Source: Escherichia coli (GTDB taxonomy: Bacteria > Pseudomonadota > Gammaproteobacteria > Enterobacterales > Enterobacteriaceae). Taken from it: a stretch of 64,000 nucleotides of DNA. The notes beneath the pieces are model-generated. The model saw nothing but the letters and a program-made list of their open reading frames with translations. It ran no database searches and was not told the DNA's origin. Below, piece after piece: positions 8,657 to 10,809 of this stretch (position 1 is its first letter; the number at the start of each line of letters is the position of its first letter). Position numbers and translations under genes: made by a program. The DNA is taken from the NCBI RefSeq assembly GCF_050320075.1, contig NZ_CP190018.1; one strand, 5' to 3'.

Positions 8657-9667
8657 ATGAAGGCTGCAGTTGTTACGAAGGATCATCATGTTGACGTTAC
8701 GGATAAAACACTGCGCTCACTGAAACATGGCGAAGCCCTGCTGAAAATGGAGTGTTGTGGTGTATGTCATACCGATCTTCATGTGAAGAATGGCGATTTT
8801 GGTGACAAAACCGGCGTAATTCTGGGCCATGAAGGCATCGGTGTGGTGGCAGAAGTTGGCCCAGGTGTCACCTCATTAAAACCAGGCGATCGTGCCAGCG
8901 TGGCGTGGTTTTACGAAGGATGCGGTCATTGCGAATACTGTAACAGTGGTAACGAAACGCTCTGCCGTTCAGTTAAAAATGCCGGATACAGCGTTGATGG
9001 AGGGATGGCGGAAGAGTGCATCGTGGTCGCCGATTACGCGGTAAAAGTGCCAGATGGTCTGGACTCGGCGGCGGCCAGCAGCATTACCTGTGCGGGGGTC
9101 ACCACCTACAAAGCCGTTAAGCTGTCAAAAATTCGTCCAGGGCAGTGGATTGCTATCTACGGTCTTGGCGGTCTGGGTAACCTCGCCCTGCAATACGCGA
9201 AGAATGTCTTTAACGCCAAAGTGATCGCCATTGATGTCAATGATGAGCAGTTAAAACTGGCAACCGAAATGGGCGCAGATTTAGCGATTAACTCACGCAG
9301 CGAAGACGCCGCCAAAATTGTGCAGGAGAAAACTAGTGGCGCTCACGCTGCGGTGGTAACAGCGGTAGCTAAAGCTGCGTTTAACTCGGCAGTTGATGCT
9401 GTCCGTGCAGGTGGGCGTGTTGTGGCAGTCGGTCTGCCGCCGGAGTCTATGAGCCTGGATATCCCACGCCTTGTGCTGGATGGCATTGAAGTGGTCGGTT
9501 CTCTGGTCGGCACGCGCCAGGATCTAACCGAAGCCTTCCAGTTTGCCGCCGAAGGCAAAGTGGTGCCGAAAGTCGCCCTGCGTCCGTTAGCGGACATCAA
9601 CACCATCTTTACCGAGATGGAAGAAGGCAAAATCCGTGGCCGTATGGTGATTGATTTCCGCCGCTAA
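8657..9667 (+). CDS. adhP: Zn-dependent alcohol dehydrogenase, propanol-preferring
   Basis: 336-aa product from [11 protein letters not shown] with the GHEGIG and CGHCEYC zinc-ADH motifs. Confidence 0.95.
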
Positions 9668-9783
9668 GAGGCCTTTGCTGCGACTGCCATGTTCGGGTCG
9701 CAGCATCGCACACTCTCCAACATGAAATGGCTAAATGGATTATTGTTGCGTAGGAAGGAACGCTACTGAGAGTAAAGACACTA

Positions 9784-10068
9784 ATGAAAATGGCCAATCA
9801 TCCCCGCCCGGGGGACATTATTCAGGAATCACTGGACGAACTTAATGTCAGCCTGCGCGAGTTTGCCAGAGCAATGGAAATTGCGCCCTCAACGGCAAGC
9901 CGATTGCTGACCGGAAAAGCAGCTTTGACACCAGAAATGGCGATTAAACTTTCCGTGGTGATCGGCAGTTCGCCGCAAATGTGGCTGAATCTGCAAAACG
10001 CCTGGAGTCTGGCAGAGGCAGAAAAAACGGTGGATGTGTCGCGATTACGCCGTCTGGTTACGCAATAA
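9784..10068 (+). CDS. yddM: HTH-XRE antitoxin-like DNA-binding protein (HigA family)
   Basis: 94-aa ORF with a helix-turn-helix ([23 protein letters not shown]); position after adhP matches K-12 yddM. Confidence 0.8.
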
Positions 10069-10778
10069 TAAATATCCTCCGGCATAGCCGGAGGTTTTTC
10101 AAATGCGCCTGTAAGGCTCTGTTACCAGCCGCGCCCTAACAGGCGCATACGATCTGACATTTGCATTCAACTTCGTTACTTACGGCCCGTAAACGGGCTG
10201 CCCGGATATGGAATCGATAACTGCTCCCCCATTTTATCCTCTTCAAGCTGGTGCTTTATGTAGTCCTGTATCTTCGCCGTGTTCTTACCCACCGTATCGA
10301 CATAGTACCCTCGGCACCAGAACTCCCTGTTTCTGTATTTGAATTTCAAATCCCCAAACTGCTCGTAAAGCATCAGACTGCTTTTCCCTTTCAGATATCC
10401 CATAAAGCCGGATACGCTCATTTTGGGTGGGATTTCCACAAGCATATGGATATGATCTGCGCAGCACTCTGCTTCCAGAATCCGTACGCTTTTCCACTCA
10501 CACAGCTTTCTCAAAATACTGCCTATCGCCCTACGCTTCTCTCCGTAAAACGCCAGTCTTCGGTATTTCGGCGCAAAAACTATGTGATATTTACAGTTCC
10601 AGCGGGTGTGCGCTAAGCTCTTTTCGTCCCCCATTGGGACCCCCTTTTGATTTCTTGTTTGACACTTGCAGTTGCCAGACCGCAAGGTGTTTTAACAAAT
10701 CAAAAGGGGTTTTAATAACTGGCTCAAAGCTGAAAGCTTTCCGGAACCCCCAGCCTAGCTGGGGGTTTTCTGTGCACA
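10067..10778 (-). mobile_element. IS200-like element (IS200/IS605 family), copy 1, about 712 bp
   Basis: Shares about 712 bp including terminal hairpins (cctccggcatagccggagg; ccccagctaggctggggg) with an inverted copy at 49967..50678; boundaries inferred from where the two copies diverge from their flanks. Confidence 0.7.
10176..10634 (-). CDS. tnpA: IS200-type Y1 (HUH) transposase TnpA
   Basis: 152-aa product MGDEKSLAHTRWNCKYHIVFAPKYRR with a HIHML HUH motif; the ORF-track start at 10685 is an extension. Confidence 0.9.
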   Translation of the reverse strand: MGDEKSLAHTRWNCKYHIVFAPKYRRLAFYGEKRRAIGSILRKLCEWKSVRILEAECCADHIHMLVEIPPKMSVSGFMGYLKGKSSLMLYEQFGDLKFKYRNREFWCRGYYVDTVGKNTAKIQDYIKHQLEEDKMGEQLSIPYPGSPFTGRK

Positions 10779-10809
10779 AAAAAAATGGCGCTTCTTAAAG
10801 CGCCATTTT
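10778..10809 (-). terminator. Rho-independent terminator after fdnI
   Basis: On the minus strand: aaatggcgc / tttaagaa / gcgccattt followed by an 8-T run. Confidence 0.7.

Follow-up and report, generated by a model that had tools for sequence, protein, structure and literature searches.

Introduction

The closest described relative of the locus analysed here is a chromosomal pair of a HigB-type toxin and a HigA antitoxin found in Escherichia coli CFT073 and NRG857c. In NRG857c the pair constitutes TA20, 'ParE-2/HigA-2' (parE-2/higA-2), with genes of 279 and 285 nt that overlap by 1 nt (Bustamante and Vidal, PMC7232551). Strains HS and K-12 encode only the antitoxin partner at the TA20 locus, and the reciprocal case has been described at the K-12 higBA (fadH–rlmG) site (PMC7232551). 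According to an earlier table, HigB has homologues in 536, CFT073 and UTI89 and none in K-12 or O157:H7 (PMC2654758). The HigB of Proteus vulgaris is a ribosome-dependent mRNA endonuclease in which His54, Asp90, Tyr91 and His92 are critical (PMC5027501), and characterized HigA systems bind palindromes in their own promoters (PMC6987408).

The window considered here is a 64,000-nucleotide stretch of E. coli DNA that carries the antitoxin gene yddM downstream of adhP. The locus is orthologous to the CFT073/NRG857c pair, the HigA of which is 100% identical to YddM and the flanking genes of which are adhP and fdnI; in contrast to that pair, the window lacks the 279-bp toxin gene and the inner operator palindrome. 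That the antitoxin is an orphan in K-12 and HS has been published before, and the present locus is an ordinary case of toxin loss with antitoxin retention. To this we add the frequencies of the different states, evidence that the toxin-positive state is ancestral, a single shared scar, a subpopulation with a frameshifted toxin, a 29-bp deletion and estimates of selection. The adhP–yddM interval is very probably the scar of a deleted toxin gene, with the antitoxin surviving as an orphan.

Organization of the locus in the window

The gene order in the window is maeA, adhP, a 116-bp interval, yddM, a copy of IS200 and fdnI, the last on the minus strand. The features around the interval are as follows.

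8657–9667, plus strand: adhP (alcohol dehydrogenase), the left flank, from the open-reading-frame list and the RefSeq annotation of near-identical strains
9689–9769, plus strand: 26-codon open reading frame, an incidental frame with no family match, no toxin similarity and no annotation in RefSeq
9784–10068, plus strand: yddM, orphan HigA-family antitoxin/Xre-type HTH protein of 94 amino acids
10176–10634/10685, minus strand: tnpA of IS200 (Pfam Y1_Tnp)

The initial annotation described yddM as having no intact partner toxin and only a 26-codon open reading frame upstream, and both descriptions are correct, including the coordinates of yddM and the position, strand and translation of the short frame. 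The open-reading-frame list contains no toxin gene in the 116-bp interval, and no HigB-like sequence was found across the whole 64-kb window (best tblastn E = 0.095). The intact toxin reading frame of a complete type II HigBA module is thus absent from both the interval and the remainder of the window, and neither holds a significant remnant of one. A co-oriented HigB-family toxin immediately upstream, which is characteristic of the HigA family, is likewise missing from the window, but 1,331 E. coli genomes and outgroup species have it at the orthologous locus.

The IS200 copy (Pfam Y1_Tnp, 126 bits; 10069–10782) is inserted directly after the yddM stop codon. In strains without the element, yddM ends in ACGCAATAA and is followed immediately by a terminator hairpin shared with fdnI, the place of which directly 3' of yddM is taken in the window by the end hairpin and T-run of the element (10076–10094). 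The same insertion site is occupied in EBJ003, and FDAARGOS_1276 carries two tandem copies. The insertion is independent of the 29-bp deletion described below, since the element is absent from three further genomes that have the window-type interval.

The toxin gene in other E. coli strains

Window positions 9300–10100 were compared with 5,426 complete E. coli genomes by megablast, and the adhP–yddM locus was found in 5,403 of them. Some of these genomes carry an annotated 'type II toxin–antitoxin system RelE/ParE family toxin' between the two genes. In clone D i14 this toxin is a 279-nt reading frame encoding 92 amino acids; the A that ends its stop codon also begins the yddM ATG. The protein matches the Pfam HigB-like toxin family (PF05015) with 63 bits (cut-off 27) and aligns over its full length with P. 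vulgaris HigB (PDB 4MCT, 4MCT_B) with 56.5% identity (52 of 92 residues, E = 1e-31). All four critical residues of the P. vulgaris enzyme (His54, Asp90, Tyr91 and His92) are retained, so the toxin belongs to the family by both profile and residues.

Toxin DNA is present in 1,331 genomes (24.5% of the 5,426), including those of Nissle 1917, LF82 and UPEC 536. Among these, 545 carry a 1-bp frameshift and are annotated as 'frameshifted': a single-base deletion after toxin codon 32 changes GCCACCGACTC to GCCACCACTC in THO-003 (positions 1201–1478 of the fetched locus) and in 544 others. The frameshifted-toxin genomes still have an intact yddM, and in them the antitoxin has been orphaned independently, by a second route. 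Where the toxin is present it is constrained, with dN/dS values of 0.038 in Escherichia and 0.07 in Citrobacter. The common toxinless junction upstream of yddM was found in 3,932 genomes (72.5%), of which 182 (3.4%) have exactly the junction of the window. The comparison of the interval across E. coli that the initial annotation had proposed therefore does reveal a full-length HigB-type toxin gene in other strains, and its suggestion that a partner toxin had been lost gains support from these genomes and from the outgroups described below.

Anatomy of the adhP–yddM interval

The elements recognized in the interval are listed below; the promoter and operator assignments are putative.

9676–9705, plus strand: stem-loop 3' of adhP, with a 10-bp stem (9676–9685/9696–9705), a 10-nt loop and no U-tract
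9745–9761, plus strand: surviving outer part of a putative promoter/operator, GTTGC-N7-GGAAC (N6 between GTTGCG and GGAACA in alleles that keep the palindrome)
9746–9751, plus strand: candidate −35 element TTGCGT
9754–9761, plus strand: single GAAGGAAC, the junction of the 29-bp deletion
9762–9783, plus strand: probable toxin-deletion scar and yddM leader (GCTACTGAGAGTAAAGACACTA)
9768–9773, plus strand: possible replacement −10 element GAGAGT, 16 nt after TTGCGT

The hairpin stem appears in both the minimum-free-energy and the centroid structures of the RNA fold and is kept in all alleles, with a variable loop. Toxin-positive loci of several genera share the arrangement GTTGCG-N6-GGAACA-N10-TGTTCC-N4-GA(A/G)GGAAC ahead of the toxin start. 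Within it, GTT.C and GGAAC are invariant over 24 aligned sequences, and GTTGCG and GGAAC are invariant or nearly so over 21 toxin-positive loci from several genera. A −10-like hexamer (GATAGT, GATAAT, GGTAAT, TATACT or similar) ends just before TGTTCC, and TTGCG(T/C) lies 16 nt upstream of it. We read this region as a putative operon promoter bracketed by HigA operator half-sites, an assignment that rests on conservation across genera because a simple consensus scan calls no sigma-70 promoter in any of the three allele types.

The K-12-type toxinless allele retains all of these motifs, followed by ∼27 nt and then the yddM ATG. It contains two copies of GAAGGAAC around GGAACAATAATGATAGTGTTCC, whereas the window has a single GAAGGAAC: an additional 29-bp deletion between the GAAGGAAC direct repeats has removed GGAACAATAATGATAGTGTTCC and with it the conserved GGAACA-N10-TGTTCC palindrome. 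The hexamers of the window (TTGCGT-16-GAGAGT) are spaced like those of the K-12-type allele (TTGCGT-16-GATAGT) by a coincidence of sequence. Four sampled window-type genomes have identical intervals and an intact yddM, one of them with R25H, and these genomes have at least two versions of adhP, with 18–19 differences in 600 nt.

The sequence between the hairpin and the yddM ATG differs strongly between the allele classes. When 9706–9783 of the window is compared with 1907–2052 of the toxin-positive locus L001, agreement is almost confined to the conserved motifs, against a divergence of ∼4% in the flanking adhP and yddM genes; the 38-nt leader and the 27-nt tail of the toxinless allele align to the toxin-positive allele no better than shuffled sequence does. 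A complex deletion, evolution of the promoter after the loss or an old allele that the indel has protected from recombination could each account for this divergence, and the toxin may have been lost in a less simple way than by one clean deletion. Three models of the deletion end points were considered: ATGAA repeats may have recombined, ∼28 nt of the toxin 3' end may have been retained, or toxin codons 1–7 may have been kept through CAC/CAC microhomology. These fit about equally well and none does better than shuffled sequences. A duplication of the yddM start (ATGAAAATGGCCAAT) as the source of the K-12-type leader ATGAAATGGCTAAAT was rejected as not significant, since 146 of 500 shuffles score as well.

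Two single genomes depart from these allele types. The interval of O157:H7 TR01 (NZ_CP033605.1; 1101–1247 of the fetched locus) was considered as an independent deletion that keeps 46 nt of the toxin 3' end, and was set aside. Its junction is unique among the 5,426 genomes, and the interval has exactly the K-12-type length, with toxin-positive sequence in the first 34 nt after the hairpin and in the last 45 nt and K-12-type sequence in the middle; the allele looks like an artefact of reference-guided assembly and not a real independent deletion. In E2865 (∼1040–1070 of the fetched locus, the promoter region that the window lacks or has in shortened form at 9740–9761), an 11-nt segment flanked by the 9-nt inverted repeats ATTATTGTT and AACAATAAT has been flipped (GCGTAGGAAGG to CCTTCCTACGC), which suggests a hairpin-mediated rearrangement in the former operator region.

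Conservation and possible roles of YddM

YddM matches TIGR02607 ('HigA family addiction module antitoxin') over 80 of the 81 model positions with 93.7 bits (cut-off 47.7) and Pfam HTH_3 with 39.1 bits (cut-off 23), making it both a HigA-family and an Xre/Cro-type HTH protein; RefSeq already names it 'HigA family addiction module antitoxin'. Its sequence is that of the solved 'antitoxin HigA' of E. coli CFT073 (PDB 2ICP/2ICT; 100% identity), it shares ∼41% identity with P. vulgaris HigA, and YbaQ (PDB 2EBY, E = 5.6e-9) is a relative in both structure and sequence. Of 14 sampled Escherichia sequences, 12 encode the same protein and the other two depart from it by one or two residues, at dS values of 0.06–0.25. 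Changes are exclusively synonymous at 34 of the 37 yddM codons that are polymorphic among these 14 sequences, and dN/dS averages 0.022 over all sequences and 0.043 within the toxinless alleles (dS 0.063). Rare variants are E80A with T93A in O157:H7 F3113 and the R25H noted above, which occurs in the window-type strain VCSW7.

A K-12 ChIP-exo study treats YddM as an Xre-family candidate with listed target genes, consistent with its being one of the 10 of 16 candidates confirmed to bind DNA (PMC6237786). Genomic SELEX assigns yddM a constitutive 'internal promoter' at the adhP/yddM position (PMC3946193). Owing to the strong purifying selection and the reported DNA binding in K-12, the orphan yddM looks like a maintained DNA-binding gene rather than a relic.

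What YddM is maintained for can be approached from several sides. Tentatively, YddM might have been domesticated after the loss as a host transcription factor and/or an immunity factor against HigB, with the diverged scar and the 29-bp deletion representing an adaptive rewiring of its expression; if so, both changes would adjust yddM expression to the loss of a co-repressing toxin. That the orphan is kept mainly as an anti-addiction or immunity factor against HigB toxins of plasmids or other mobile elements, a role of orphan antitoxins that is a standing hypothesis (PMC7354431), appears unlikely. There are indeed 538 plasmid records with relatives of the toxin, including 99 from Escherichia, and the lost toxin has the similarity to the plasmid Rts1-type P. 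vulgaris HigB given above. However, 535 of the 538 plasmid homologues are less than 60% identical to the lost toxin and only three records reach at least 90%, of which the one listed, a 385-kb E. coli record with 100% identity, may be a mislabelled chromosome. The low identity of YddM to P. vulgaris HigA and the usually narrow recognition between antitoxin and toxin also weigh against such a role.

It is quite improbable that the orphan is a decaying relic without function. The partner is gone, the window lineage has in addition lost the conserved palindrome and the likely −10 element, and no phenotype is firmly assigned, the epetraborole hypersusceptibility of the Keio yddM mutant not having been complemented (PMC12457515). 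These points are outweighed by the near-universal presence of the locus in complete E. coli genomes, by the identity of the protein in most sampled sequences in spite of synonymous divergence, by the low dN/dS that persists in toxinless alleles, by the intact yddM of the four sampled window-type genomes and by the DNA binding reported in K-12.

Loss or gain of the toxin gene

Toxin-positive genomes are a minority in E. coli, and the two allele classes have strongly diverged promoter regions, as might be expected had yddM never had a toxin in E. coli and had the gene in B2-type strains been a recent insertion. One genome per species was searched for relatives of YddM. The toxin directly precedes the YddM homologue, with fdnI as a neighbour, in E. 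albertii, in Escherichia sp. MOD1-EC7003 and in two divergent 'E. coli' species representatives, and the same arrangement is found in most of the Citrobacter genomes recovered and in single genomes of Enterobacter, Pluralibacter and unclassified Enterobacteriaceae. Cedecea, Buttiauxella, Chimaeribacter and Erwinia likewise have the toxin immediately before the YddM homologue, with no fdnI detected within the fetched flank; adhP adjoins as well in Escherichia and in two Citrobacter. The overlap of the outgroup toxin with the antitoxin start, given as 4 nt, matches that in the toxin-positive loci of E. coli.

A gain in E. coli is very improbable in view of these outgroups, which carry the toxin at the same position, with the same overlap and, where detectable, with the same fdnI neighbour. 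Toxin and antitoxin moreover have similar dS and low dN/dS, and one junction is common to all toxinless genomes. The toxin-positive arrangement is ancestral and vertically inherited and the toxinless state derived, because E. albertii, other Escherichia, many Citrobacter and other enterobacteria carry the toxin upstream of yddM. The toxin is reduced to fragments in Citrobacter sp. FP75, frameshifted in C. portucalensis A60, and frameshifted, present as a remnant or wholly absent in Xenorhabdus species. To judge from the sequences, the decay in these three groups is independent of the loss in E. coli.

The 26-codon open reading frame

The initial annotation left open whether the 26-codon frame upstream of yddM is a toxin remnant or coincidental. 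Profile searches with the 26-residue peptide, which it had proposed, return no Pfam or NCBIfam family at E ≤ 1; the same holds for an overlapping 36-residue reading frame. The peptide has no blastp-short match to the toxin of other strains at E ≤ 1000 and thus shows none of the detectable toxin similarity that would place it in the HigB/RelE superfamily. Short frames are common here, with 57 reading frames of at least 20 codons overlapping the surrounding 4 kb.

The start codon of the frame sits in the loop of the hairpin 3' of adhP, and the frame spans what is spacer and promoter in toxin-positive alleles, that is, sequence upstream of the former toxin gene. In the K-12-type allele the frame has 25 codons and a different end (…KEQ); in toxin-positive alleles its ATG begins an unrelated frame of 55 codons, and the loop ATG is missing in E2865 and E. 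albertii. The frame is coincidental, neither a gene nor a toxin remnant, because it is located upstream of the old toxin site, is not conserved between alleles and has no likeness to the toxin. That it is what degradation has left of the lost toxin gene, or a miniature version that still works, can hardly be credited: it does sit where a toxin is expected, immediately upstream of the antitoxin, but its counterpart in toxin-positive strains is the hairpin, spacer and promoter, its peptide has neither a family match nor similarity to the toxin, the frame changes or disappears from allele to allele, and the nucleotide similarity of the interval to the toxin gene is not above chance. Of the two options of the initial annotation, coincidence stands and the remnant falls. 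For annotation, the 26-codon frame should not be called a gene, and yddM is here the orphan of a known HigBA-type pair.

Proposed history of the locus

The ancestral order is adhP, its 3' hairpin, the putative promoter/operator, a 92-residue HigB-type toxin, an overlapping yddM (higA) and fdnI. E. albertii, other Escherichia, many Citrobacter and about a quarter of E. coli retain it. Long ago, one deletion probably removed the whole toxin reading frame and so placed yddM ∼27 nt behind the last operator half-site. In the lineage of the window (182 genomes), the second deletion, of 29 bp between the GAAGGAAC repeats, then took the inner palindrome together with the probable −10 element, leaving the outer GTTGC…GGAAC inverted repeat and a similar hexamer spacing. 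The 26-codon frame is accidental: it starts in the loop of the adhP hairpin and crosses the former promoter region.

YddM itself has persisted as an orphan, a dimeric HTH protein under purifying selection. It most probably represses its own promoter by DNA binding, and perhaps other promoters in the same way, and it may also neutralize related incoming HigB toxins. The conserved inverted repeats upstream and the listing of YddM among DNA-binding proteins confirmed in K-12 give indirect support to autoregulation.

Comparison with known systems

Beyond bookkeeping of the locus state and annotation, the importance of the locus is small. It does provide a clean and well populated example of the decay of a chromosomal toxin–antitoxin pair, in which the toxin goes first, by deletion or by frameshift and repeatedly, and the antitoxin remains under purifying selection. 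Such toxin-first decay with a constrained antitoxin supports the view that orphan antitoxins are kept for a function, whether regulation or anti-addiction.

Two other E. coli orphans have a similar history. In ybaQ of K-12 and in the orphan higA at the fadH–rlmG/ygjNM site of B2 strains the toxin has also been lost and the antitoxin kept, in a phylogroup-variable manner (PMC7232551); these are, however, different loci and belong to different subfamilies from yddM. The HigB–HigA pair of the P. vulgaris plasmid Rts1 (PDB 4MCT/4MCX) has the same toxin-first gene order as the toxin-positive alleles and the same four critical residues in its toxin. It differs in being plasmid-borne, whereas the E. 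coli locus is chromosomal and syntenic across genera, and the window retains only the antitoxin half.
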